From positions 132,765-196,764 of the forward strand of contig JAJDCD010000004.1 in NCBI GenBank assembly GCA_029261035.1: a stretch of DNA of 64,000 bases, written 5' to 3'. The stretch comes from Candidatus Omnitrophota bacterium. GTDB taxonomy: Bacteria; Omnitrophota; Omnitrophia; Omnitrophales; JACROU01. The notes under the pieces were generated by a model, which worked only from the letters and a program-made list of their open reading frames with translations, was not told where the DNA came from and did not search any database. Each line of letters starts with the position of its first letter. Positions within the stretch are counted from its first letter, which is position 1. The translations under genes were made by a program, and so were the position numbers. Shown here in pieces: positions 4,229 through 62,590 of this stretch.

Positions 4229-5001
4229 TTACTTAACACTCTCATTTCAAGTCTCATAATAGTAGCCATAAGAAAAAATAACGTTAACAAAGAATAATAA
4301 ATCACATCCTTCACCTCTAAAACTCCTTTAACCAGACTCCTATAATGATTCAAAGCTGAAAGGTGTCCTGTCCAACTAAGCCAAGAAGATTGATTCAAGC
4401 CTTCGATCCAACCAATAACCCACAAAAACATCATTATCGAAAAAGCAACAACAGCAGCTACAATTTGGTTCTCTGTTAAACTAGAACAAAAAATACCAAT
4501 TGCCATAAAAGAAGCTCCTAGCAACATCACTCCCAGAAAGCCTGTCAGCACCGTTCCCCATTCAAAATACCCTCCAACCATCTGAATTAATATTGGGTAT
4601 AAAAATAAAGGGAACGCCATAAAGAAAAACAATGTCATCATAGACAAGTATTTACCCACCACAACTTCCCAATCTCTCACTGGAAGAGTCAACAAAAGCT
4701 CTAAAGTCCCTTGTTTTTTTTCTTCAGAAAAACTTCTCATCGTTATTACCGGAACAAAAAAGATAACCAGTACAGCAACATTAGAATAGAGATGCGTTAG
4801 AACCATCTCCGTAAGATTGAAATTAAGGTTCTGGATCCCAGGGTTTTCATTCCACTGCTGAGACATAATAGAAAAAGAAGCCGTTAGAGAAAGAAAAAAA
4901 TAACTCGCAATAGATATAAATAGCGCCACCAATAAATAAGCTATAAACGAATGCAGCAGTTGAAACACTTCTCTTTTGTATATTGTAAAAACAGGTCCCA
5001 T
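4225..5001 (-). CDS. ABC-2 family permease (GldF-like)
   Basis: 258-aa polytopic membrane protein that immediately follows the ABC ATPase gene. Confidence 0.65.
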   Translation of the reverse strand: MGPVFTIYKREVFQLLHSFIAYLLVALFISIASYFFLSLTASFSIMSQQWNENPGIQNLNFNLTEMVLTHLYSNVAVLVIFFVPVITMRSFSEEKKQGTLELLLTLPVRDWEVVVGKYLSMMTLFFFMAFPLFLYPILIQMVGGYFEWGTVLTGFLGVMLLGASFMAIGIFCSSLTENQIVAAVVAFSIMMFLWVIGWIEGLNQSSWLSWTGHLSALNHYRSLVKGVLEVKDVIYYSLLTLFFLMATIMRLEMRVLSK

Positions 5002-5016
5002 AACTTAATATCCTAT

Positions 5017-5997
5017 TTAAATGTGTGTTGACGCTTTTTCTTGATTTCGTACTAATGCTAAAAAAACGTCTTCTAATTTCGATTCCTCTTCGACCATCTC
5101 TCTAATTTCTATATGATCATGAACTAGCTTCTCAAGTACTTGAGAAAGAATCTCGGCCTTTGGATTTGAAACAATTCTATAAAAATTATATTCTTCCAAA
5201 CTCTTCAGTTTAAGAACGGATTCAACTCCTGTAATACTTTTCAACAAAACCATTACCTTTTCATCATTTCCTTTTACTCCCAAACGATAATAACGTTTTA
5301 CCTTTAAGCGATCTGTCAACTCACTGGGTTTTCCACTCGCCAGAATTGTTCCTTGATTCATAATAAGAACACGGTCAGCCACCTTTTCAACTTCCGACAA
5401 CAAATGGGTAGATAGAATAACAGAAGAGTCTTTATTTAATTTCTTGATCAATTGCCTCATTTCTACTGTTTGCTCTGGGTCCAACCCTGATGTCGGTTCA
5501 TCCAACAAAATAAGCTTAGGTTTACCCAAAATAGCCTGAGCTAACCCCACTCGTTGCTTAAACCCCTTAGATAACTTTCCTATCAAATGAGATTCGACAG
5601 ATTCCAAAGACAAGAAATTCAACACTCGATCTAACTCTTCTTTTCTTTTTTGTTTATGAAGACGTTTCATATTGGCTATAAAAATCAAAAATTCTTTCAC
5701 CGTCATATCTAGATATAGAGGAACATTTTCAGGAAGGTAACCAATCTGTTTTCTAGAAAGAATAGGGTGTCCAACTAAGGAAAACCCATTAACAAAAATC
5801 TCACCTTGTGTTGGGGGAAGAAAACCTGCCAACATTCTTAAAGTGGTTGTCTTACCGGCTCCATTAGGACCTAACAACCCTAATGTTTCTTGAGGATGCA
5901 GCTTAAAAGTTAAATCAGTAACAGCATCAAAAGTACCAAAGGTCTTTTTTATATGATTAACTTCTAGAATAGATAAAGGTTGGTTTATTTCTGACAT
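5017..5997 (-). CDS. ABC transporter ATP-binding protein (GldA-like)
   Basis: Walker A GPNGAGKTT, ABC signature LSKGFKQRV and Walker B ILLDEP. Confidence 0.85.
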   Translation of the reverse strand: MSEINQPLSILEVNHIKKTFGTFDAVTDLTFKLHPQETLGLLGPNGAGKTTTLRMLAGFLPPTQGEIFVNGFSLVGHPILSRKQIGYLPENVPLYLDMTVKEFLIFIANMKRLHKQKRKEELDRVLNFLSLESVESHLIGKLSKGFKQRVGLAQAILGKPKLILLDEPTSGLDPEQTVEMRQLIKKLNKDSSVILSTHLLSEVEKVADRVLIMNQGTILASGKPSELTDRLKVKRYYRLGVKGNDEKVMVLLKSITGVESVLKLKSLEEYNFYRIVSNPKAEILSQVLEKLVHDHIEIREMVEEESKLEDVFLALVRNQEKASTHI

Positions 5998-6045
5998 TAA
6001 TATTCCCGAAACTAAGGTTTGATTTTTTAGAATTGATGATTTGGA

Positions 6046-7254
6046 CTAAGCTTTACAAACTCTTGCAAATTTTCTCTTCCCACACTGAATAATTACTTCT
6101 TGATCTAAATCAATTTCAAGCTTCGTATCCGTTATTTTTTCTTGATTAACTTTCACCCCACCCTGTTCTATTAGCCGGCGCGCTTCAGATTTACTACTAA
6201 CAAGCTTGATTTCAAACAACAAAGGGCCTATTTCCATCGAACTCTCTTTAAAAGTAAATAAGGGCATATCCTCAGGTAATTTTTTATTCTTAAAAATATG
6301 CTCAAATCCTTCATAAGCTTCTTCTGCTCGAGACTCATCATAATAAAGTGAAACGATTTGCTTTGCTAATTTAACTTTCATTTCTTTGGGGTGAATTTTT
6401 TCTTTATTCAAATCATTCTCTAAAGCATCACATGTAGCTCGATCCCAACCCGTAAAGTAGCGCATATATCGAAGCATTAAAGTATCTGAAACAGACATGA
6501 CTTTACCAAAAATTTCTGAAGGCTCCTCTTGAACTCCAATATAATTACCCAAAGATTTCGACATTTTTTGCACACCATCCGTTCCTTCAAGAATAGGTAA
6601 TGTTAAAACAGCTTGAGGAAACTTGCCATAATCCCTTTGTAATTCACGGCCCACTAATAAATTAAATTTCTGATCCGTACCACCTACTTCTACATCCGAA
6701 TCCACAACCACAGAATCATAACCCTGAAGCAGGGGATATAACAGTTCAATCACGGCTATGGGTAGATTCGATTTAAAGCGCTTATTAAAATCATCTCGCT
6801 CCAGGAGACGCGCCACAGTATATCGAGAAGTCAATGTAAGGAATTCCGTTGGAGACAATGCATCCAACCATTCGGAATTGTATCGAACCTCAGTTTGTTT
6901 TTTATTTAAAATTTTAAAAACTTGTTCTTGGTAAGTAATTGCATTTTGTTTAACCTCTTCTTCAGATAACGCTTTACGCGTTTCCGAAACACCTGAAGGG
7001 TCTCCAATACGCGCTGTAAAATCTCCAATAATAAATACAACAGTATGTCCAAGCTCTTGAATTTCACGAAGCTTTCTTAAAGGAACCGTATGCCCCAAAT
7101 GAATATCCGGAGCTGAAGGATCTGCGCCATACTTAACCCGCAAAGGCCTTTTCTCTTTCGCAGCGATTTCTAGCTTTTTAGAGAGTTCTTCTTCAGAAAT
7201 AAGCTCTTCCGCACCCTCTTTAAATACATCAATCTGATCTTTGACTGATTTCAT
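6046..7254 (-). CDS. tyrS: tyrosine--tRNA ligase
   Basis: Class I HIGH motif (HLGH), a KMSKS motif and a C-terminal S4 domain. 402 aa. Confidence 0.9.
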   Translation of the reverse strand: MKSVKDQIDVFKEGAEELISEEELSKKLEIAAKEKRPLRVKYGADPSAPDIHLGHTVPLRKLREIQELGHTVVFIIGDFTARIGDPSGVSETRKALSEEEVKQNAITYQEQVFKILNKKQTEVRYNSEWLDALSPTEFLTLTSRYTVARLLERDDFNKRFKSNLPIAVIELLYPLLQGYDSVVVDSDVEVGGTDQKFNLLVGRELQRDYGKFPQAVLTLPILEGTDGVQKMSKSLGNYIGVQEEPSEIFGKVMSVSDTLMLRYMRYFTGWDRATCDALENDLNKEKIHPKEMKVKLAKQIVSLYYDESRAEEAYEGFEHIFKNKKLPEDMPLFTFKESSMEIGPLLFEIKLVSSKSEARRLIEQGGVKVNQEKITDTKLEIDLDQEVIIQCGKRKFARVCKA

Positions 7255-7289
7255 AACATCCTCATAAAAGACAATTGATTTTATCTAAA

Positions 7290-7325
7290 ACAAAAAAAGG
7301 TCGCTCTAAAAAATAGAGCGACCTT
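7290..7325 (-). terminator. Rho-independent (bidirectional-looking) terminator downstream of rpsA
   Basis: GGTCGCTCT-N7-AGAGCGACC hairpin flanked by an A-run on one side and a T-run on the other. Confidence 0.55.
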
Positions 7326-49141: not shown

Positions 49142-51295
49142 TTATAAATTAGAAATACAAGAAAGATCCGCAACCGAATCAACGTAAAGAGAGTTAATCT
49201 TTCTCAATAACGCCTGTCGATTCGCCCGCACTTTTTGATCTTCTGCATTCACAAGCACTCCATCAAAAAATTGATGAATCGGCTCATAAAAAATATCTCC
49301 ATAAAACTCAGTTGCCTCAGCATAGTGCTTACCGACAAGTTTTTCTTTAAACTGAGCTTCATTGGATTCAAACACTTCAAACAACTGCTTCTCTAAATTT
49401 TCTTGAAGCAACTCTTTCTTAATTTGGGTTGGAATCTCATCTTTAACACCTTTGAGAATTCGCCCCGTTCTTTCTACAACCTTGGCAGCTCGTGTGAACT
49501 TGCCTGTTTGCTTCTTAGCATATTTGTTCAGAAGTTCGAATTTCTGATACACATCGCTCAAATCATCAAACCCCGTCTCCAAAATCGCTTGCAAGATTTC
49601 GTAAGACTGCGTTCCTGATTTTGCTTCCAGCTCATAAACCAAACGTTCTTTAATAAAGGAGTTTAGCTTCTTCCCTGTCTCCGCATTAAACTCAGAAACT
49701 TTATTTCCATAAAGCTCTTTCGCCTTTTCGATCAATGCCAATAAAGAAAAAGAAAAACCAAATGCACGAATGGTTTTAACAACACCCCCACAAGCACGTC
49801 TCAGCGCATACGGATCCTGGCTTCCCGTTGGGATTAACCCAGAACCAAAAGCCCCTACTAATGTATCTAATTTTTCAATTATGGCTAACAGAGCACCCGT
49901 AGAATTCATTTGTTTCTTTAATGCAGAAAAACTTAAATTCAGACTCTTAGGCCAATAATGGGCATCAATGGCCTTGGCTACTTCCGATCTTTCCTTACTG
50001 AAGGTAGCATATTCTGCCCCCATCACACCTTGAAGTTCAGGGAATTCAAACACCATCGAAGTAACTAAATCTGCCTTACACAGCTCGGCAGCACGGACCA
50101 AATCTTGTTTCTCTTGCTCTGAGATACCAATAGAATCTGATAAGAATAAAGCAAGTTGCTTTAAACGTCCAGTCTTTTCGTAGACCGTTCCCAGTTTCCC
50201 TAAAAAGACAATTCCTTTAAGCTTAGACACCTTATTTTCCAAGGGTTCGCGCGTATCTTCCTGATAAAAAAACTGAGCGTCTCTCAAACGACTTTCAAGC
50301 ACATTTTGATAGTCTGCAGAGACCTTTTTTGCATTCTTTCTTTTTCCATTCAAAACAGCCACAAACTCTGGCACCAACTTACCTTTTGTGGAGAAACAAG
50401 CAAAAATTTTCTGGTTCTTTTTCATACAGGTTGAAAGCACCTGACTCGGCAGCTTGAGGAAGCTTTTATCAAACGATCCCGAACAAGCAAATGGCTCTTC
50501 GACCAGATCCGTAATTTCTTCAACCAGCCCCGCGTCAAAGTAATCCGCATTCCACGATTTCTTCTTTGCCAGTTGGTTAATTTGTTTTACCACCAAAGAG
50601 CGTCTTTCTTTACGATTCAAAATAACGTGATTTTTCTTAAGAAGCTTTTCATATTCTGCAATGCGCTTCACTTTAAACTCTTTTGGAGAAAGAAAACGAT
50701 GCCCTCGGGACACATTCCCCGTTTTAACTCCTGCAAACTCAAAAGGAACCACTTTATCTTTATATAAAGACAACAACCAACGCACAGGTCGTGTAAAACG
50801 AATTCCTGTTTCTTCCCACCGCATATTTTTAGAAAAAGGTAGCTTTTGAATCAATGTCTTTAACAACTCTGGCACAATCGCTGTGGATTTTTTAGATGAC
50901 TCAGAGACACGTGCAATAATGTACGTTCCCTTGTCTGTTTTTTCTTGAGTTGTTTTTGCTAGGGTTACACCTTTGGATTGAAGAAAACCTTGAAGCGCTT
51001 TTGTTGGCTTTCCATCTGCATCAAAGGCTTTATCAACAGAAGGCCCTCTATGTACTTTATCGGATACCTTTTGCTTATCAGAAACACCCTCAAACAAAAA
51101 TACAATTCGACGGGGCGTTGTATTAATCTGTAATGAGGAGTACTCCAAACGATACTCTTGAAACAAATCGCTCGCTAACTTCTCCCAAGCTCCCGATGTT
51201 ACGAAACGCCAATGACTGAGAGGAAGTTCTTCAACTCCGATTTCCAGTAACAAACGATTACTCTCTGATTTTAATATTTTCTTTTTGTCTGCCAT
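49142..51295 (-). CDS. glyS: glycine--tRNA ligase beta subunit
   Basis: GlyS-like length and motifs. Start placed at the MADKKK Met (ATG at 51293-51295), which shares 1 nt with the glyQ stop (TAATG). The track ORF extends spuriously to 51370. Confidence 0.8.
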   Translation of the reverse strand: MADKKKILKSESNRLLLEIGVEELPLSHWRFVTSGAWEKLASDLFQEYRLEYSSLQINTTPRRIVFLFEGVSDKQKVSDKVHRGPSVDKAFDADGKPTKALQGFLQSKGVTLAKTTQEKTDKGTYIIARVSESSKKSTAIVPELLKTLIQKLPFSKNMRWEETGIRFTRPVRWLLSLYKDKVVPFEFAGVKTGNVSRGHRFLSPKEFKVKRIAEYEKLLKKNHVILNRKERRSLVVKQINQLAKKKSWNADYFDAGLVEEITDLVEEPFACSGSFDKSFLKLPSQVLSTCMKKNQKIFACFSTKGKLVPEFVAVLNGKRKNAKKVSADYQNVLESRLRDAQFFYQEDTREPLENKVSKLKGIVFLGKLGTVYEKTGRLKQLALFLSDSIGISEQEKQDLVRAAELCKADLVTSMVFEFPELQGVMGAEYATFSKERSEVAKAIDAHYWPKSLNLSFSALKKQMNSTGALLAIIEKLDTLVGAFGSGLIPTGSQDPYALRRACGGVVKTIRAFGFSFSLLALIEKAKELYGNKVSEFNAETGKKLNSFIKERLVYELEAKSGTQSYEILQAILETGFDDLSDVYQKFELLNKYAKKQTGKFTRAAKVVERTGRILKGVKDEIPTQIKKELLQENLEKQLFEVFESNEAQFKEKLVGKHYAEATEFYGDIFYEPIHQFFDGVLVNAEDQKVRANRQALLRKINSLYVDSVADLSCISNL

Positions 51296-52194
51296 TACTT
51301 TTTCTTCTTCCCTGACTTTAGTAACGGGAATCCTAACACACGTCTTTTTTCTAAATAGGCCTCTGCACATCCTTTGGCAATACCTCTAACACGTCCAATA
51401 TAGCGGGGCCGTTCAGTAACACTAATAGCACCACGGGCATCCAAAAGATTAAACGCGTGTGACGCTTTCATACAAAAGTCATAGGCGGGTAAAACAAGAT
51501 TTTTTTCTAAAATACGTTTTGCTTCCGATTCGTACTCATCAAAGTGACGCAACAACATCTCGACATTGGCCTCTTCAAAATTAAAAGCGGAGAACTCTTT
51601 CTCCCCTTCTAAATGAACATCGCCATAAGTTTCTTTTCCATTCCAATCAATATCGAACATCGAATCTCTGTTTTGAAGAAACATCGCAATCCGTTCTAAA
51701 CCATATGTAATTTCTATGGGGATCACTTCCAAATCAATACCACCGCATTGTTGAAAATAAGTAAACTGCGTAATTTCTAAACTATCAATCCAAACTTCCC
51801 AACCTAAACCCCAAGCCCCTAAAGTTGGAGACTCCCAGTCATCTTCCACGAAACGTAAATCAAATTCATCCACGTTAATTCCAATATAACGAAGGCTTTC
51901 TAAATAAAGTTCCTGAATGTTTTTTGGAGAGGGTTTTAGAATTACTTGATATTGATAATAGTGTTGTGTTCTCAGTGGGTTCTCACCATAACGCCCATCC
52001 GTAGGACGACGCGAAGGTTCCACATAAGCGGCACTCCAAGGTTCCGGACCTAATGCACGTAAAAAAGTATGTGGAGAGAATGTTCCCGCACCTTTTTCCA
52101 TATCATAAGGCTGTACAACGAGACACCCTTGGCGGGACCAAAACTGGTTTAACCGCTGAATCAGATCTTGAAAAGAAATAGTTTTTGTAGGCAT
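51295..52194 (-). CDS. glyQ: glycine--tRNA ligase alpha subunit
   Basis: 299 aa with a highly conserved GlyQ core ([24 protein letters not shown]). Confidence 0.9.
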
Positions 52195-54500: not shown

Positions 54501-54734
54501 CTATTTCGTTAATTGTATAGCAGCTGATGTCGCTGCTATCAGTATTAGAATTAAAAGGATTATGTATTTTCCTTTGTTTAGCTGGCGTTCTTGTTTTTTT
54601 AGCCAGCTTTTTACGATGGTTTGTTTTTTGTCGGAATACTCGCCTTTTGTTAGGCGGGCTTCGACTGCTTCTTTGCCTAGGAGTTTTAGGCTCTTTTCGA
54701 ATTCTTTCCAGTAGTGGGTATCTTCGTGTTCCAT
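54501..54734 (-). CDS. small tail-anchored membrane protein (hypothetical)
   Basis: 77 aa with a C-terminal TM helix IILLILILIAATSAAI. Co-directional with and immediately upstream of the GT gene. Other overlapping ORFs in 54436-54946 were rejected. Confidence 0.4.
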   Translation of the reverse strand: MEHEDTHYWKEFEKSLKLLGKEAVEARLTKGEYSDKKQTIVKSWLKKQERQLNKGKYIILLILILIAATSAAIQLTK

Positions 54735-54896
54735 GGTTATCCTCTTCGCTTTGCATGGGATTTAACGTTGGGGGTATTATACAGGAAGTGGGGGGATTTG
54801 GCACGAGTGGGGTGGTTGTTCGGTTCCCTTTGTCATCTTTGGCTTGGTTGGGGATCTGGGGGTTTTGGAGTGGTATACTTTTAGTAGAGGACGAAA

Positions 54897-55553
54897 ATGG
54901 GAAATACAATAAAAATCAAAAAACATCCTACAAAAAACAATCCTAATTATTTTTTAATAGATTCAGACTTTTTTGTTAATAGATACCTATCTAAACATTT
55001 GTCATATTTAAACCTAAACTCGGGAAATAGTGGTGAAGAATCAATAGAAAAAAGTGCTTTATGGTGGAATGAAATTAATTCTCAGCTAAAAAATGAAATA
55101 GCTTATCTATTTATTCCAAATGTTTGCATTTCAGAGACATTTAAAGTCCTAGCTAAAAGACAATACGACAAAGATGAAAAAATCATTAAGAAATATAAAT
55201 ATTACAAGGAGTTAATCGATGAAATTTCAGAAGATCTTCATGTCAACCCTAAACTTCCCGAAACACAGAAGAAAAAACAAAGAATTCATGACCTAGAAAC
55301 AAACCGTGATATTGTTATTGGAACAGATAGATTTTTAAGGTTAATAATGAAAAATGGTTATAAAACAATATCAACATTTGATTTAATGTTGCTAGTTCAT
55401 GGAAAGTTGCTTTTGAAACATTACAACTTTAATAAGAGAAATCTCTTTATTATTACAGGAGATAAAACGCTATACAATGCCTCTAAACCATTTCCTGATA
55501 TTCCACGAGTATGCTGTCCTAACATAAACTCATTTGATAGTTCATTCGATTAA
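54897..55553 (+). CDS. PIN-domain nuclease-like protein
   Basis: Acidic quartet in canonical PIN order: FLIDSDFF, ISETF, HDLETNRD, TFDLML and FIITGDKT (T-x-D). About 30% GC. Confidence 0.5.
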   Translation: MGNTIKIKKHPTKNNPNYFLIDSDFFVNRYLSKHLSYLNLNSGNSGEESIEKSALWWNEINSQLKNEIAYLFIPNVCISETFKVLAKRQYDKDEKIIKKYKYYKELIDEISEDLHVNPKLPETQKKKQRIHDLETNRDIVIGTDRFLRLIMKNGYKTISTFDLMLLVHGKLLLKHYNFNKRNLFIITGDKTLYNASKPFPDIPRVCCPNINSFDSSFD

Positions 55554-55643
55554 ACCCAACGCATTCAATTTTAAAGGTTTAATACCAAAATCGAATTCTA
55601 GATAGATTGGATACGTAGTTTACGAGCGTTAAAACAATAACTG

Positions 55644-58058
55644 CTAAAATGGTAAAGAAGATTTATTTTTAAGTAAATAATATTTTGCATGTGCAATCAA
55701 GAAAACCTTGTTTCTAAAGAAAAAGAACCTTTTTTCTCCTAACTTCTTTTTCAAAATCTTAACATCATCGAATGGTTTATCGGCCTTTTTATCATAACCT
55801 AGCATGTAACTCTTATTAAACAAAGTCTCTATTAGCTTCTCTTTTTTTAACTGATTAAACTTAAACTCTCTAAGAATCTTGATAAATTTCCTATACTCAA
55901 TCTGCTTACCATGATACTCTTGCAACCTTGTAAGAATTTCGGATATTTCTGGAAACTCAGCCCTTGTTTCTGCTATTAAATTATTATTCAAAAACTCTGT
56001 ATAACTTGTAATAGCATATTTTAAGTCCTTTCTATCTACTTTGTGATTGCCATTATTGATAGCAGACTCGAATAACTTTGCAACAAAATATATTAAGTCT
56101 CTTGGACGCTTCGTAATAATCTCCTGTATTATTTCAAAAGGGTGCCTTTTCTCTTTAAAGTTAAAAAATTCCCTCCATGCTTTTTTTTCTAACAATTCAC
56201 TGTCGGACTCATCCAATTTTAATATATGCGCAAATCTATTCTCAATTAACTTTTTTAATAGGCCCGGATAATCTTCCCAGTTTATATAGTGAGCCATAAG
56301 AACTAACTTATCAGGCTCTGCTACCTCGTTGCGAATATAGTTGAATATATCTTCTCTTAAAAAAATAATTTGTTTAACCTCAACCTGAGAATCTTTACTA
56401 AGTAATTCTTTTTGTATTTTATTTTCTATCTCTAATAAAGTACTCATCATCTCTGATTGTATTTTAAGATCATTTTTGGGATCCCAAGTCTTATCTAAAT
56501 TGTCTGCTAAAACAATCACTTTATAGTATTTTTTTCTAATTGATGTAAAGTAATTACGCAAACATGCAGTTAATGGCGAAAGGTATTCTTTAAAAAGAGT
56601 CTCCATGACCTCGGGACCGGAAATCTCCCTTGAATTTGTTCTTCTAACATTAACTTCTCGAACAACTCCAAAAAAGTTAAGCTTAGTGAACTCTTCATTT
56701 TTTTCTACAAAATTTATTATAGCTTCCTCCTCATCAGTCATTGTTACACTATTTTTTTCATCAAGTATACGCTCCACAATAGAAATAGCTAGTTTTGAAA
56801 AAATTACTAATTTCCACACAGCAACAAAAAAGCTTATTCTAGAAGAATCAAATAGTTTGGACAGCTGAATGTCATCAAGCAATTCATCAGACTCAGGTTT
56901 CAAACTAACAATATAATTATTTTTTTCTTCTGGCAAATCATCAGATAATTTGATGTAGATAGCAGATTTTCCACTACCTTTTCGCCCAACAACAATCGAC
57001 TTTTTATAATTTAATGCTTTTTGATATGAAGCAGTATTAACAAAATAACTTAAGAGTTCCCGACTCTCATTCTCTGCTATGTCACACCCAATACCCAACT
57101 CGATTAAATTTGTTTCATGTTCTATGATTTCACTCTTCTCTTGCGTTGTATCAAAAGCTAGTTGTTTGTCCAACCAAGGACTAATAAATTCCTTTATTTC
57201 ATCAGAAATTTCATAAGTAACCAAAATATCATGGTAATCTAAAGGTGGTTTGAACTTTGCAGGTGCAAGCAACAAAACATCACATCCCCATCCACAAGCA
57301 ACTCCAGCATAAAAAGCATTTTTTGCGTTTTCCATAAATGAATTTTGATAATTCTCTCCTAAAAGATGAATAAGAACCACTCTTGCCTTTAAAAGGTTCT
57401 GAAAATACCAAGTTAATGTTTGATATTTAATTTCAGATAAATCATCTGCAACAAGAGATAGTGACTTATTGTCTTTATAATCAATAATATGGTCCGTAAG
57501 CTCTATTGAATCTTGAGTTGCAAGTTTACTTTGAATATAAAATATGTCTGTACTTTTAGAGGTTAGATTTTTAAAATTCACAAACTTATTTAAAAGATTA
57601 TTTTCAAAGCTTTTTTGCTGAAGGGCTTTCTGGATACAATATGAATTTTTAAAAGGTATATAACGAATATCTTTTAGAATAAATTCTTTGTAAATCTTAT
57701 TGGGAAACCCAAGCTCATTATTAACACTAATATTTTCATTAATTAAGATTAGAATATATTTATTTTTTGCTATAGCATATCCAAGCTCAAACAAAACATT
57801 GTGATTAAAATACGTCAGATCACACACAAAAACTTCACTTCCGTCAATTGCTGAAAGGATTTCCTTACTAATTGTAGTTGTTTGTTTATATTCCTCCCAA
57901 CTTCTAGCTTTATAAGTTTTTTGGTGTTGATTAAAGGCTTCAATCGCCTTTTTAATTGATTCAACATTGTTATCAGCTAACCCATTAGAACGTCCTTGAT
58001 AAGCAAAAAATATTTTTTTTTGTGGTAATTCAGAATTTTTTGATACCATTATTACCAA
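55644..58058 (-). CDS. tandem NDT/TIR-like Rossmannoid domains fused to a P-loop NTPase (candidate defence/conflict protein)
   Basis: Residues about 15-110 KIFFAYQG...EVFVCDLTYFNHNVLFELGYAIAKNKYILIL (nucleoside 2-deoxyribosyltransferase-like FE(L/I)GYA motif). Second degenerate copy ...NAFYAGVACGWGCDVLLLAPAKF. Walker A VVGRKGSGKSAIYI and candidate Walker B YKVIVLADNLD. About 400 aa helical C-terminus. About 29% GC. Confidence 0.55.
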   Translation of the reverse strand: MVIMVSKNSELPQKKIFFAYQGRSNGLADNNVESIKKAIEAFNQHQKTYKARSWEEYKQTTTISKEILSAIDGSEVFVCDLTYFNHNVLFELGYAIAKNKYILILINENISVNNELGFPNKIYKEFILKDIRYIPFKNSYCIQKALQQKSFENNLLNKFVNFKNLTSKSTDIFYIQSKLATQDSIELTDHIIDYKDNKSLSLVADDLSEIKYQTLTWYFQNLLKARVVLIHLLGENYQNSFMENAKNAFYAGVACGWGCDVLLLAPAKFKPPLDYHDILVTYEISDEIKEFISPWLDKQLAFDTTQEKSEIIEHETNLIELGIGCDIAENESRELLSYFVNTASYQKALNYKKSIVVGRKGSGKSAIYIKLSDDLPEEKNNYIVSLKPESDELLDDIQLSKLFDSSRISFFVAVWKLVIFSKLAISIVERILDEKNSVTMTDEEEAIINFVEKNEEFTKLNFFGVVREVNVRRTNSREISGPEVMETLFKEYLSPLTACLRNYFTSIRKKYYKVIVLADNLDKTWDPKNDLKIQSEMMSTLLEIENKIQKELLSKDSQVEVKQIIFLREDIFNYIRNEVAEPDKLVLMAHYINWEDYPGLLKKLIENRFAHILKLDESDSELLEKKAWREFFNFKEKRHPFEIIQEIITKRPRDLIYFVAKLFESAINNGNHKVDRKDLKYAITSYTEFLNNNLIAETRAEFPEISEILTRLQEYHGKQIEYRKFIKILREFKFNQLKKEKLIETLFNKSYMLGYDKKADKPFDDVKILKKKLGEKRFFFFRNKVFLIAHAKYYLLKNKSSLPF

Positions 58059-58330: not shown

Positions 58331-59941
58331 ATGAAGAGCTACCGTTTCTTATTCACCCTTCTTTTACTCTACCCCTTTCTCATTCTCACCCTTTCTGCTT
58401 TTCGGCCGGGGCCTGTGAACTCTCCTTTTGTGGAATATCAGGAGCCGGAGTTTTTGACTTATGAGGAGCTTCAGGAGTTGAGTCGGAATCCGGAGCCAAA
58501 TCGGAAGTTGAAGGCTAAGCTTGAGCGATTTTGGAAGACCCCTATTATTAGTAATGAGGCTTATATTCAAGGGATGATGCCTGCTGTGAAGAAAAATCGG
58601 CGTTTGGGCACCTTTATGCGAGTTGCGAGTTGGAATATTGAGAAGTCTCTTAATATTCCAGATGCGATTACTGTGTTTACTTCTCCTGAAAAATTTAAGG
58701 GTTTGATTAACACAGATATTCCTGTGGGTTCTACGGATTATGAATATATTCTTTTGCAGCAAAAACGGTTGATGACTTCGGATGTTGTGATCTTGCAGGA
58801 AATGGATATCGGGGTTAAACGATCGGGTTATAGGAATGCGACTGCCGATTTAGCCAAGGCGATGAATATGAATTACGCCTATGGGCCAGAACAGTTGGAA
58901 GTGGATCCTGTGATTCTGAGTCTTGAGAGTTTAAAGTTTGAAGATGATCGTTTGGATGAGGAAGCTACAAAATACTTTAGAGCCGACCCTGAGAAAGTGA
59001 AAGGGGTTTTTGGGAGTGCTGTTTTGTCTAAGTACCCTATCAAGTCTGCAGAGGTGTTTCAGTTAGAGACTCAGACTTATGATTGGTACTCCGGAGAGAT
59101 AAAGAAAACTACGTTTCTTGAGAAAGGGCGAAGAACGGGTTCGAAGACTGTTTTTAAGAATGAGTTGACGCGTGAGGTTAAGGTTGGCGGGCGAATTTTT
59201 TTTAGAGTGGATTTGTATGTGCCTGAGCTTCCGAATGAGACGTTGACGGTGATTAATGTGCATCTTGAGATTAAGTGTACGCCTAAAGGGCGTGAAATGC
59301 AGATGAAAGAGATTTTGAGTTATATTAAGGATATTAAGAATCCGGTGATTTTGGCTGGGGATTTTAATTCTGCCCCTACCGATTTGAGTCCGACGTCGGT
59401 GACTCGGGTTGTGAAACGGACGGCAAAGAATCCGACGACTTGGCTTTCTGTTGGGATTAATTATTTTACGGCTGAGGGGGCTACGATTAACACTTCCCGC
59501 TTTCTTTCTAATGCGACGAAGAATTTTCAAAATCCTTTGGCGAAGCATATTCCGATTGTGGCTCCGAATGCCGTTAAGGGGTTGTTTGATCGGGTTGAGT
59601 ATTTTCGGTTTAAGGATGATGGGGTTTTTGATTTTCGTGGGAATGGTGAAAGGTCGATGAATGGGAAGGATAAGAAGTTGGCTAATTCGAATGAGAGGGA
59701 TTTGATTGGGTTTAAGACGACGTTTCGTGTGAGACGGCCTATTGGGTTTATTGGGAAGTATCGATTGGATTGGATTTTTGTGAAATCGTTTTTGAAGGAT
59801 GGGAACGATGATTTTGGGTCGTATCGGTTTGCTCCGCATTTTGGGGAGACGCTTGAGGAGATGAATACGAGTTTGGTGAGAGCGGTTTCGGATCATCATC
59901 CGAATGTGGTGGATTTGCCTTTTGAGGAGCCGGGGGTTTAG
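58331..59941 (+). CDS. secreted endonuclease/exonuclease/phosphatase (EEP) family protein
   Basis: Signal peptide and EEP motifs: VASWNIE, ILQEMD, VINVHLE, AGDFNS and SDHHP. GC-rich and G+T-rich coding strand. Antisense ORFs 58364-58762 and 59063-60043 rejected. Confidence 0.65.
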   Translation: MKSYRFLFTLLLLYPFLILTLSAFRPGPVNSPFVEYQEPEFLTYEELQELSRNPEPNRKLKAKLERFWKTPIISNEAYIQGMMPAVKKNRRLGTFMRVASWNIEKSLNIPDAITVFTSPEKFKGLINTDIPVGSTDYEYILLQQKRLMTSDVVILQEMDIGVKRSGYRNATADLAKAMNMNYAYGPEQLEVDPVILSLESLKFEDDRLDEEATKYFRADPEKVKGVFGSAVLSKYPIKSAEVFQLETQTYDWYSGEIKKTTFLEKGRRTGSKTVFKNELTREVKVGGRIFFRVDLYVPELPNETLTVINVHLEIKCTPKGREMQMKEILSYIKDIKNPVILAGDFNSAPTDLSPTSVTRVVKRTAKNPTTWLSVGINYFTAEGATINTSRFLSNATKNFQNPLAKHIPIVAPNAVKGLFDRVEYFRFKDDGVFDFRGNGERSMNGKDKKLANSNERDLIGFKTTFRVRRPIGFIGKYRLDWIFVKSFLKDGNDDFGSYRFAPHFGETLEEMNTSLVRAVSDHHPNVVDLPFEEPGV

Positions 59942-60439: not shown

Positions 60440-60517
60440 TGGCGTCCCCAAGGGGATTCGAACCCCTGTCGCCAGAATGAAAATCTGGTGTCCTAGGCCT
60501 GACTAGACGATGGGGAC
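60440..60517 (-). tRNA. tRNA-Glu (anticodon TTC)
   Basis: GTCCCCATCGTCTAGTCAGGCCTAGGACACCAGATTTTCATTCTGGCGACAGGGGTTCGAATCCCCTTGGGGACGCCA closely resembles bacterial tRNA-Glu. CCA is encoded. Confidence 0.85.
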
Positions 60518-60581: not shown

Positions 60582-61253
60582 TTATGAGCTGCGGGTTACT
60601 CCTATTTTTGGGCAGAATTTTTGCATGGGGCATTGGGTGCATTTGGGGGTTCTGGCTTCGCAGAGGGCGCGGCCGTGGTAGATCATTTCATGACAGAATT
60701 GGGTCCAGCGGGGTTTGGGGATGATTTTCATGAGGTCTTGCTCTACCTTTACTGCTTCCTTATTATACTTTGAGAAGCCGAACCTATAGCTCAAGCGGCC
60801 TATGTGGGTGTCTACTACCATGCCTGGGATGTTGAAGGCGTTGCCTAGGACTACGTTGGCTGTTTTGCGGCCTACGCCTCTTAGTTTGACTAGCTTCTCT
60901 AGTTCGTTGGGTACTTCTCCTCCGTGGAGCTCTAGGATGTCTCTGGAGCAAAATTTGATGGATTTGGCTTTGTTGCGGTAGAAGCCTGTCGACTTTACGG
61001 CTTCTTCTATGTCTGTTAAGGGGGCTTCTGCGAATGCTTTTACTGTTGGGTATTTTTTGAAGAGGCCCGGGGTTACTTTGTTTACTCGGACATCCGTGCA
61101 TTGGGCAGATAAGATGGTGGCAATTAAGAGTTGGAACGGGTTGTTATAGATTAGGGCGCAGTGAGCGTCGGGGTATTCTTTTTTGAGACTGCGTAAGACT
61201 TGGCCTACTCGCTTTTTGAGTTCTTCTTGTTTGGTGCTGGTTTTTTGAGTCAT
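60582..61253 (-). CDS. nth: endonuclease III (DNA glycosylase/AP lyase)
   Basis: HhH-GPD fold with catalytic region LVKLRGVGRKTANVVLGNAF and a 4Fe-4S loop CEARTPKCTQCPMQKFC. GC-rich. The internal ORF 60784-61101 is rejected. Confidence 0.85.
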   Translation of the reverse strand: MTQKTSTKQEELKKRVGQVLRSLKKEYPDAHCALIYNNPFQLLIATILSAQCTDVRVNKVTPGLFKKYPTVKAFAEAPLTDIEEAVKSTGFYRNKAKSIKFCSRDILELHGGEVPNELEKLVKLRGVGRKTANVVLGNAFNIPGMVVDTHIGRLSYRFGFSKYNKEAVKVEQDLMKIIPKPRWTQFCHEMIYHGRALCEARTPKCTQCPMQKFCPKIGVTRSS

Positions 61254-61268: not shown

Positions 61269-61751
61269 TTAGTTACTTTGCTTGTCTGCTTCTTCTTTGA
61301 TCATGATGTTCCACTCTTCCCTTTTAACACGAAGAAGATCACCTAAGGTGTGTTCGTAAGCTTTGTCTTCTGTTGATATCGGCAAGTTACGGAACTCGGA
61401 GTCACAGATGTAACATACTTTGAGGAATTGAAGTTTTTTGTAAAGAATCCAATCGATGAAAGCTGCTACGGCTAAACTAAGACCATAAGTCCAAATGCTG
61501 AGAATGGCTCCTGCAATAAAGATGAGGAGGCCTAGCATTTTGTTGAAATCTTTCACCAAGTAAAAGTCATCGTAACCGCATAAGTGGCATTGAAATTTTT
61601 CTGCTTTTGGGTCTGAGACGAATTTAATTTTGTATTCGCAGTTTCCGCACTGGGTTCCCTCGTTAGGATCATCTACGACCACTTCGTTTTTATATTCACA
61701 AGCAGGACAATAATAACGGAAAATTAAGTCTTCATTTTTTTCTTGGCTCAT
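61269..61751 (-). CDS. zinc-ribbon membrane protein (hypothetical)
   Basis: Start moved to the MSQEK Met. Two CxxC pairs (CPACEY...CGNCEY; CHLCGY) followed by TM helices. Confidence 0.4.
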   Translation of the reverse strand: MSQEKNEDLIFRYYCPACEYKNEVVVDDPNEGTQCGNCEYKIKFVSDPKAEKFQCHLCGYDDFYLVKDFNKMLGLLIFIAGAILSIWTYGLSLAVAAFIDWILYKKLQFLKVCYICDSEFRNLPISTEDKAYEHTLGDLLRVKREEWNIMIKEEADKQSN

Positions 61752-62590
61752 AATGGAAATCCTATCGCTTGAAAGATGTAGTCTGCAAAAAGTTCTCCTA
61801 TAAATACAAAAATACAGGCGACATACAAAATACCTGTCGCCGCTTGATTCGAACGAAGTTTTGCTGTTTCTAAAATCATAAAAGATAAAATCAACGGTCC
61901 TAAAATCCCCCACACCACTCTCATGATGAAAAAGAGACCCAACTCGTTAAAAGACACTGCCCGTAACGGCAACGCATGTGCTTGAGGCCCCAGAAAGAAG
62001 TAGAACATCACAAAGAAAAGAATCAGACTCGCACCACGAATGATAGAAGAGGTTACCAAAGTTTTAGAGGCGTTAATCAAGTAACGAAATGGCAAATTAG
62101 GGGTTACTAAATACCAGTGCCCTAAGATCATCGTTCCGTAACTCCAACCCAACAGAACTGACCCCAACAGCAAAGATGTTCCGCCTAATATTTGAGCAAT
62201 AATAGATAGCTCCCCACTGACACCCATCATCCCTCTAGAAAATACAGTGGCAATCCCAGCAAGTACCGCCACAAACAAAAGGACGCGCGTCATCGTAAAA
62301 GCTTTAAATAAAACAAACAGATAAGAAAGTAAGAACACAGACATAACGATAATCAGCATAGTTTGAAATGTTGGATAATATAATTCAAACACAGCTGAGT
62401 TTGGCGCATTAGGATAGTTCTGTAAATAGTTTCTGAAAAGAAACAAGGAAAACAAAAGAAAGGAAAATGCAAAGAACCCATTGAGCAAATAAAAATTATG
62501 CTTTAATTGTTTGAGAGGCATAAATAACATAAACAATAATATGCCCACACCAAATTGTAAAAAAAACAAACTTGCTATTTGAGATAACAT
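61748..62590 (-). CDS. polytopic integral membrane protein (hypothetical)
   Basis: 280 aa with about 8 hydrophobic helices and no catalytic motifs. Confidence 0.45.
   Translation of the reverse strand: MLSQIASLFFLQFGVGILLFMLFMPLKQLKHNFYLLNGFFAFSFLLFSLFLFRNYLQNYPNAPNSAVFELYYPTFQTMLIIVMSVFLLSYLFVLFKAFTMTRVLLFVAVLAGIATVFSRGMMGVSGELSIIAQILGGTSLLLGSVLLGWSYGTMILGHWYLVTPNLPFRYLINASKTLVTSSIIRGASLILFFVMFYFFLGPQAHALPLRAVSFNELGLFFIMRVVWGILGPLILSFMILETAKLRSNQAATGILYVACIFVFIGELFADYIFQAIGFPL

Follow-up and report, generated by a model that had tools for sequence, protein, structure and literature searches.

A candidate one-protein conflict gene, with tandem NDT/TIR-like domains on an Sll1717-family ATPase, beside a solitary PIN gene in an AT-rich islet of an Omnitrophota genome

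Do two adjacent genes of conflict type that share one compositionally atypical islet belong to a single defense system? The question is raised by an AT-rich islet of 3.3 kb, with a content of two genes, on contig JAJDCD010000004.1 of a Candidatus Omnitrophota bacterium (assembly GCA_029261035.1). The islet lies within a stretch of 64,000 nucleotides (contig positions 132,765 to 196,764, forward strand; hereafter the window), and all coordinates count from the first letter of that stretch. One gene encodes a large protein in which two N-terminal domains resembling nucleoside 2-deoxyribosyltransferase (NDT) and TIR domains precede a P-loop ATPase; the other encodes a small PIN-fold protein. A preliminary description had taken the pair for one nucleotide-centric defense module. 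Our analysis suggests that the large protein is, with a probability of about 0.6, a self-contained one-protein conflict or antiphage candidate of abortive-infection type, by analogy with Avs, bNACHT and Swarozyc. We base this reading on a match of the ATPase to NCBIfam NF047389, an invariant glutamate (E88) in the first domain, a fixed architecture, a patchy spread across phyla and prophages, the stand-alone nature of the gene, its outlier GC content, and neighbors of restriction-modification (R-M), BREX or DISARM type together with transposases and toxins.

Both open reading frames (ORFs) are real (54897-55553, plus strand, 218 aa; 55644-58058, minus strand, 804 aa from TTG), and all the peptide motifs quoted in the preliminary description are present in their translations. 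For the large gene we favor an ATG at 58049 over the alternative TTG at 58058, because it has a GGAG 10 nt ahead of it and is where an identical 801-aa protein in the database begins. Residues are numbered from this ATG, the NF047389 match span given below being in 804-aa numbering; invariance of residues in the large family was counted over 39-109 homologues. The features of the large gene are as follows.

55644..58049, minus strand: large gene, two NDT/TIR-like domains and an Sll1717-family P-loop ATPase, 801 aa (ORF and identical database protein)
57570..58028, minus strand: domain 1, residues ~8-160, flavodoxin-like, NDT/DNPH1/TIR-like, predicted N-glycosidase
57774..57821, minus strand: catalytic-type motif DLTYFNHNVLFELGYA (D77...N84-V85-x-F87-E88-x-G90-x-A92; invariant residues)
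57150..57569, minus strand: domain 2, residues ~161-300, second flavodoxin-like copy, catalytically degenerate (AF2 topology and hhalign)
57261..57329, minus strand: domain-2 motif NAKNAFYAGVACGWGCDVLLLAP, with Tyr247 at the position expected for Glu (alignment)
55806..57089, minus strand: P-loop ATPase and helical region, NCBIfam NF047389, Sll1717 family (profile match)
56964..56987, minus strand: Walker A, GRKGSGKS, with G355, K357, G358, G360 and K361 invariant (family alignment)
56493..56519, minus strand: Walker B-like VIVLADNLD, with D516 and D519 invariant (family alignment)
55647..55805, minus strand: C-terminal ~53 residues past the NF047389 model, conserved in the close family (alignment)

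An AlphaFold2 (AF2) model of residues 1-335 (pLDDT 89.5, pTM 0.85) consists of two successive beta-alpha-beta flavodoxin-like domains, and the order of strands and helices in the second is that of the first. The N-terminal signature had been likened to the catalytic-Glu loop of NDT and TIR-related enzymes, and this likeness holds. Residues D77, N84, V85, F87, E88, G90 and A92 are invariant in 109/109 homologue sequences, and a comparison of the family profile with PDB sequences matched DNPH1/Rcl weakly (E ~0.05), placing NVLFELGYA on GVGYELGRA and E88 on the Glu of the DNPH1/Rcl ELG motif. We take the GVGYELGRA segment of DNPH1/Rcl to be the carrier of its catalytic Glu. The Pfam model Nuc_deoxyrib_tr (PF05014) scores 23.2 bits against the large protein (E 8e-5), below its gathering threshold of 28.8; it matches 31 of 39 homologues at E<=0.01 (best 6.6e-7) and is assigned to several homologues in a precomputed table. 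TIR models fare less well, TIR_2 and CAP12-PCTIR_TIR each reaching 1 of the 39 members at ~1e-3, which does not make the family a member of these models, and the PADLOC TIR effector model giving a sub-threshold E of 6e-4. No match to Pfam DUF4062 was found at E<=1 for the large protein or at E<=0.01 for the 39 homologues. In structural comparison of the N-terminal model with Foldseek, a probability of 1.00 was obtained only for NDT (7o62, 20% identity) and DNPH1, with SARM1, RPP1 and CAP12 next at 0.95-0.99. As in the NDT superfamily, the fold is flavodoxin-like and a nucleophile-type Glu, within an E-x-G motif, opens the helix that follows the third or fourth strand; because Foldseek ranks NDT and DNPH1 above SARM1, RPP1 and CAP12, we place domain 1 on the NDT/DNPH1-like side, at the border with TIR, as a predicted enzyme of N-glycosidase type.

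The preliminary description had also noticed a second, degenerate copy with Tyr in place of Glu, which is right as a description. Position 247, the domain-2 counterpart of E88, is never acidic among the 109 sequences (Y in 44, F in 26, L in 20, W in 18 and I in 1), while N241, G249 and A262 are invariant. Alignment of the two domains with hhalign places LFELGYA on AFYAGVA, and LFELGYAIAKNK-ILIL on AFYAGVACGWG-VLLLAP, with weak statistics (E 0.0039, probability 8.6%), and BLASTP of domain 1 against domain 2 returned nothing significant; the case for their homology comes mostly from the topology of the AF2 model. The conserved, Glu-less domain 2 probably serves either as a pseudo-dimer partner within the same chain or as a lobe for regulation or ligand binding.

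The P-loop NTPase that had been read from the sequence is borne out by NF047389, which matches residues 324-751 on model positions 2-414 of 454 with 210.6 bits against a cut-off of 75 (E 4.7e-62), and NCBI likewise names homologues P-loop ATPase, Sll1717 family. A conserved Walker A and a conserved Walker B acid, the general marks of P-loop NTPases, are both present, spaced ~155 residues apart, and ~280 residues follow Walker B. The C-terminal ~53 residues match no family and are a possible sensor or winged-helix-like end. The ATPase module is also matched by phrog_13260 (E 7.6e-23), PHROG families matching both the ATPase and the N-terminal domain, and residues 343-601 by component C of the PADLOC model PDC-M28 (E 4e-6, 24 bits). 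To which class of NTPases the module belongs is less plain. The nSTAND3 model matches 12 of 39 members, at best with 28.2 bits and over model positions 1-51 of 155 (residues ~325-377); ORC-CDC6-like models match 7 of 39 weakly, over ~40-50 residues around Walker A; NACHT (E 0.015, no stretch passing by itself) is not significant; and the PDB profile search gave for this module only Ras P-loop matches at E>0.3, so that sequence comparison points to no solved structure. An assignment to STAND or ORC was considered and is unproven, the matches being confined to ~45 residues at Walker A. The preliminary description had placed the protein among STAND and Avs-like systems; because nSTAND3 and ORC cover Walker A only, NACHT is insignificant and no repeat sensor was found, we withhold that label, and the likeness to STAND/Avs systems is architectural. 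As a separate observation, the ATPase module also occurs alone, in proteins of 485-515 aa without an N-terminal effector domain on IMG/VR viral and prophage contigs. These begin at the same AE-D..L..YF motif as is found at residue ~320 here, continue with GRKG[ST]GK, and have no consistent partner gene.

Relatives of the large protein are numerous and scattered. Searches recovered >213 full-length homologues of ~790 aa, and when one genome per species was scanned with the alignment, at least 426 relatives were confirmed; a genome scan with the single query sequence gave zero matches. They span Leptospirales, Planctomycetota, Elusimicrobia, Cyanobacteria/Melainabacteria, Chloroflexota, Acidobacteriota, Bacteroidota, Bacillota, Actinomycetota and one archaeon, and eight full-length copies were found on viral or prophage contigs (IMG/VR). 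A HMMER search of 1.84 billion representatives with the N-terminal 335 residues yielded 706 clusters, counted at the 50% identity level, at E<=1e-3, of which 380 also pass E<=1e-10. Nearly all complete members are 775-810 aa long with the NDT/TIR-like module at the N-terminus, and the architecture is thus fixed.

Across 80 large-family loci, each taken with flanks of up to 8 kb, none of the neighbor families is seen in more than 5 of the 80, so the large gene stands alone. Single loci are nevertheless suggestive. The homologue of Turneriella parva (CP002959; locus coordinates 4908-7318) is immediately preceded by a ThsB-type TIR gene together with an rve transposase and a SLATT_1/SLATT_3 gene, an arrangement that looks like a TIR-SLATT conflict pair into which an insertion sequence has moved. 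In Leptospira levettii the homologue is found near a Type I R-M operon, and in Caldithrix abyssi near transposases and Phd/ParE. The Eco57I/MmeI/N6_Mtase families, read by PADLOC as Type IIG R-M, DrmMI (DISARM) or PglX (BREX), are the most frequent among the 144 ORFs directly next to the gene (6-7 ORFs), and UvrD, resolvase, rve/DDE transposases and Gp49 follow. This guilt by association links the family to defense with moderate strength. The defense context proposed earlier stands in part: homologues adjoin defense or mobile genes in several genomes, whereas a defense island at the tRNA is not shown here. The low GC content that had been reported for both genes is confirmed, at 0.300 for the large gene and 0.279 for the PIN gene; no other 3.2 kb of the window has a GC content as low as that of the islet (0.298; window mean 0.383, standard deviation 0.024), and the flanks of the islet, put at roughly 50% in the preliminary description, measure 0.38-0.48.

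How might such a protein act? Its parts are an N-glycosidase-type domain with Glu88, a Glu-less copy, an Sll1717 P-loop ATPase and a helical C-terminal region. If Avs5, bNACHT, SARM1, Swarozyc and the Retron-Ec86 effector are a guide, the ATPase or C-terminal part may sense a trigger from an invading element, and nucleotide-dependent assembly would then bring the N-terminal domains together. The Glu88 domain, once activated, could cleave the N-glycosidic bond of nicotinamide adenine dinucleotide (NAD+) or of (deoxy)nucleotides, so that an essential metabolite would be depleted and the infection aborted; the dead second copy would be either a built-in partner for dimerization or a lobe with a regulatory role. 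We infer the substrate, the trigger, the oligomerization and the defense phenotype from these analogies.

There are precedents for such a scheme. Catalogues of effectors that target NAD+ or nucleotides include TIR, DrHyd (NDT-like) and Sir2 domains carried N-terminally by STAND, iSTAND and NACHT NTPases (PMC7159879; 10.1101/2022.07.19.500537); with these catalogues and the curated NCBIfam ATPase family at hand, the earlier label "undescribed" was too strong. Avs5, composed of Sir2, nSTAND3 and repeats, depletes NAD+ upon sensing a phage protein (10.1101/2025.07.08.663546). Like Avs5 (SIR2-STAND), bNACHT and TIR-NLR proteins, the large protein joins an N-terminal NAD+- or nucleotide-type effector, a P-loop NTPase and an alpha-helical C-terminus in one chain (10.1101/2025.07.08.663546; 10.1101/2022.07.19.500537), and it shares with them a stand-alone gene, a patchy spread and links to defense islands or prophages. 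It differs in its effector, a tandem NDT/TIR-like pair and not Sir2 or a canonical TIR; in its ATPase, which is of the Sll1717 family, with nSTAND3 likeness over only ~45 residues in 12/39 members and Walker A and B ~155 residues apart; in that no TPR, WD40 or LRR sensor array was detected; and in being known from sequence alone.

A second comparison is with Swarozyc and other DUF4062 proteins, a domain that lies between TIR and NDT in sequence space, acts as a Glu-dependent NADase in Swarozyc and stands beside NACHT in TEP1 and NWD1 (10.64898/2026.05.01.722283). Oligomerization activates NAD+ hydrolysis by these NADases, and bacterial Swarozyc, which senses the phage portal, carries an auxiliary domain that is helical (10.64898/2026.05.01.722283). 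Shared with the large protein are the Rossmann-like TIR-NDT intermediate character, the single conserved catalytic-type Glu, and the position N-terminal to an auxiliary or NACHT module; the large family differs in having no Pfam DUF4062 match, a dead second domain copy and a P-loop ATPase. The NDT/DNPH1 (Rcl)/MilB superfamily (Pfam clan Nribosyltransf; 'DrHyd') provides the best sequence and Foldseek matches, the same flavodoxin-like fold, and a (D/E)-x-T-x4-5-(N/G)-V-x-(F/Y)-E-L-G-x-A pattern that aligns with its catalytic-Glu segment. Its enzymes are dimers with composite active sites, which could explain the tandem pseudo-dimer seen here (10.1101/2023.08.16.553469). Identity is only 13-20%, the Pfam match is sub-threshold, the ATPase fusion sets the large protein apart, and the position of Asp80 in DNPH1 is not conserved in the large family (profile against PDB alignment).

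In Retron-Eco1 (Ec86), an NDT-like domain is the abortive-infection effector, inactive until a phage trigger and requiring dimerization for defense (10.1101/2023.08.16.553469). There, control is exerted by a reverse transcriptase and multicopy single-stranded DNA and not by a fused ATPase, and no reverse transcriptase or ncRNA is present here. The weak match to PDC-M28 component C involves the ATPase region only. PDC systems owe their prediction to 'guilt by embedding', being found within loci of BREX, DISARM or Type I R-M (10.1101/2024.01.29.577857), and their methyltransferase and R-M surroundings resemble those of the large family; PDC-M28 is a multi-gene candidate, and the large family is single-gene.

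The theme of a single-protein effector with an NTPase and the curated ATPase family were thus known, and what is new is a fixed live/dead NDT-like tandem on an ATPase that is not assignable to STAND. If the large protein is immune in function, a widespread family of ~700 clusters, present in many phyla and some prophages, joins the one-protein effector-NTPase defenses. With an effector that falls, within the TIR-NDT continuum, toward NDT/DNPH1, and a fixed tandem of active and inactive copies, it may show how composite N-glycosidase sites are gated, and an ATPase lineage that is not demonstrably STAND adds mechanistic interest. A bolder form of the proposal, in which the live and dead copies make up a new built-in pseudo-dimeric effector against (deoxy)nucleotides (deoxynucleoside mono- or triphosphates, or modified phage nucleotides) and not NAD+, switched by a non-STAND Sll1717 ATPase, would make these ~700 clusters an unrecognized and mechanistically distinct single-gene immune system; we put it forward tentatively and hold it to be doubtful.

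Several observations weigh against the preferred reading. In the window the islet is flanked by housekeeping genes, and there is no other defense gene. Across the family, defense neighbors are a minority, the top family accounting for 6-7 of 144 flanking ORFs, and housekeeping neighbors also occur. The PADLOC check envisaged in the preliminary description brought up the weak PDC-M28C match and the sub-threshold TIR effector, and no model of a validated system. A repeat-type sensor (TPR, WD40, LRR) was detected neither in the large protein nor in 39 homologues, the STAND or ORC class is unproven, and our literature search found no publication or experiment on the Sll1717 ATPase family or PDC-M28. 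The occurrence of the effector-less ATPase in prophages implies that its basic role may not be effector activation. Such ATPase-only relatives, together with the full-length ones on IMG/VR viral and prophage contigs, would suit a protein that serves a mobile element or phage, as an anti-defense enzyme against immune-signal or modified nucleotides, as an exclusion or addiction factor, or as an ORC/Cdc6-like ATPase on DNA. The PHROG matches to both the ATPase and the N-terminal domain and the weak ORC-CDC6-like matches (7/39 members) point the same way, and NDT/DrHyd-type enzymes are catalogued in viral conflict systems around NAD and ADP-ribose (PMC9503650). We nevertheless consider a role of this sort rather unlikely: 32 relatives on viral contigs face at least 426 in cellular species genomes, many viral matches are prophage regions of isolate genomes, where host-benefiting defense genes are common, the ORC-CDC6-like match is limited to ~40 residues at Walker A, and the chromosomal R-M and Thoeris-like neighbors fit host defense.

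A housekeeping N-hydrolase coupled to an ATPase, with a DNPH1/MilB-like function in salvage or sanitation of nucleosides and nucleotides and no part in conflict, would agree with the best sequence and Foldseek matches (DNPH1, NDT, MilB) and with the housekeeping genes that flank the islet and some of the homologues. The patchy spread over phyla and prophages, the strongly atypical composition, the lack of a conserved operon partner, an 800-aa effector-ATPase architecture unlike known salvage enzymes, and recurrent R-M, TIR, SLATT, toxin-antitoxin and transposase neighbors make such an enzyme improbable. Alternatively, the N-terminal domains might be non-catalytic and serve a signal-activated ATPase with its output elsewhere, either as TIR-like scaffolds or by sensing a ligand (a SLOG/TIR-like nucleotide receptor would be one example). 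That domain 2 is conserved without the catalytic residue, that TIR, SLOG and NDT folds double as nucleotide sensors (Burroughs et al. 2015, as cited in PMC7159879), and that the ATPase module is found without these domains in other proteins would all accord with a sensor. We likewise give this account a low chance, given that E88, D77 and N84 are invariant in an NDT-type catalytic motif across 109 sequences, that no other effector domain was detected in the large protein, and that no partner gene is conserved. The two-gene module, finally, in which for instance the PIN protein is an effector or toxin controlled by the NTPase, has in its favor the shared AT-rich islet, the adjacency, the conflict-type domains of both proteins, and the pairing of PIN domains with ATPases elsewhere, as in HEC-03 (10.1101/2024.01.29.577857). 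A tblastn search with the PIN protein, however, found zero matches in 80 large-family loci even at E<=10, and one with the large protein found zero at E<=1 in 84 PIN-family loci (434 kb). The genes moreover converge, their 3' ends being separated by 90 bp, and are not divergent as had been stated; each is a transcription unit of its own, and no common promoter is possible. With co-occurrence nil in both directions (0/80 and 0/84) and convergent orientation, the only link between the genes is adjacency in one islet, and we rejected the module as very improbable. The case carries a lesson for annotation, in that adjacency of two conflict-type genes in an AT-rich islet does not amount to one system.

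The PIN gene, an independent neighbor and no partner of the large gene, can be described separately.

54897..55553, plus strand: solitary PIN/VapC-fold protein, 218 aa (AF2, Foldseek and invariant residues)

The protein consists of a PIN fold with an insertion of ~80 residues. The acidic residues that had been noted in canonical PIN order are D22, E80, D162 and D189 (within T187-x-D189), and the insertion carries H131-D132...R137-D138; D22, E80, H131, D132, R137, D138, D162 and D189 do not vary among 87 PIN-family members, so that these motifs, like E88 and its companions in the large family, are not due to chance. The AF2 model (pLDDT 93.3) gave 29 PDB matches at E<=1e-3 in Foldseek, nearly all VapC/PIN (probability 1.00, target-normalized TM-score up to 0.75). 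All Pfam PIN matches are below threshold (PIN_12 at 17.6 bits, cut-off 32), and within the family sub-threshold matches were seen to PIN_12 in 50/87 members and to PIN in 31/87. The fold is assigned from the Foldseek matches, the confident AF2 model and these sub-threshold Pfam matches.

A search with the single PIN sequence found one homologue, in a Methylomirabilota O-antigen-type/polysaccharide cluster, and a profile made from the two sequences extended the family to >230 members of ~210 aa without a Pfam domain; 177 relatives were confirmed on metagenome contigs. In one context an integrase accompanies Prim-Pol, in another it accompanies Replic_Relax and TraG-like genes (a relaxase-type element); these and the O-antigen cluster are settings that also speak against the joint module. 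The sole recurrent neighbor in 84 PIN-family loci is a tyrosine integrase (7 loci). Neither a VapB-like antitoxin nor a conserved partner was found across these loci, and no plausible small ORF lies upstream of the PIN gene in the window. The protein shares with VapC-type toxins the PIN fold, the four acidic residues in canonical order and the T-x-D; it differs in its ~210-aa length, in the H-D...R-D insertion and in the missing adjacent antitoxin. It is best explained as a separate, predicted solitary VapC-like nuclease of integrative elements that shares the islet by chance, and its integrase-linked, antitoxin-less family is likewise uncharacterized.

Around the islet, a distance of 2.38 kb separates the large gene from tRNA-Glu(ttc) (60440-60517), in agreement with the ~2.4 kb given earlier, and a gene of the endonuclease/exonuclease/phosphatase family (58331-59941), of normal GC content, stands between the islet and this tRNA. 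Exact-protein look-ups made to compare gene order with sister genomes gave no match for the large protein or for the product of this gene, and for the GT4 and PIN proteins they gave only contigs of 2-3 kb. The neighbors are housekeeping genes (glyQ/glyS, comEA, a helix-turn-helix-cupin regulator, a GT4 glycosyltransferase, nth and pepA), so a multi-gene defense island is not the case here. Neither an integrase nor att-like direct repeats were found around the islet, promoter and terminator motif scans of the islet region gave no excess over chance, and tRNA was the sole family matched in an Rfam search. The islet is best explained as two unrelated accessory genes that were horizontally acquired and are independently mobile.

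Some smaller features of the window deserve mention. The intergenic tract 54735-54896 (plus strand), between a small transmembrane ORF with the GT4 operon (minus strand) and the PIN gene (plus strand), has five runs of 4-6 G in ~160 nt and could be a G-quadruplex-prone leader or promoter element. That small ORF (54501-54734, minus strand; 77 aa) has a hydrophobic C-terminal helix, lies immediately upstream of the GT4 glycosyltransferase gene in the same orientation, has no Pfam match, and is also called on an independent Logan contig. Two further minus-strand ORFs without a Pfam match, 61269-61913 and 61748-62590, overlap by 166 nt as listed; one has CxxC pairs and a hydrophobic segment, the other is polytopic and membrane-like, and the true start of the downstream ORF is probably later than listed. 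Finally, at 90% identity neither GlyQ (51295-52194) nor Nth (60582-61253) has a relative among ~15 billion proteins, which indicates that the source lineage (GC 38%) is poorly sampled; short Logan contigs with sequence of this lineage come from runs SRR15505516 and SRR15505518.

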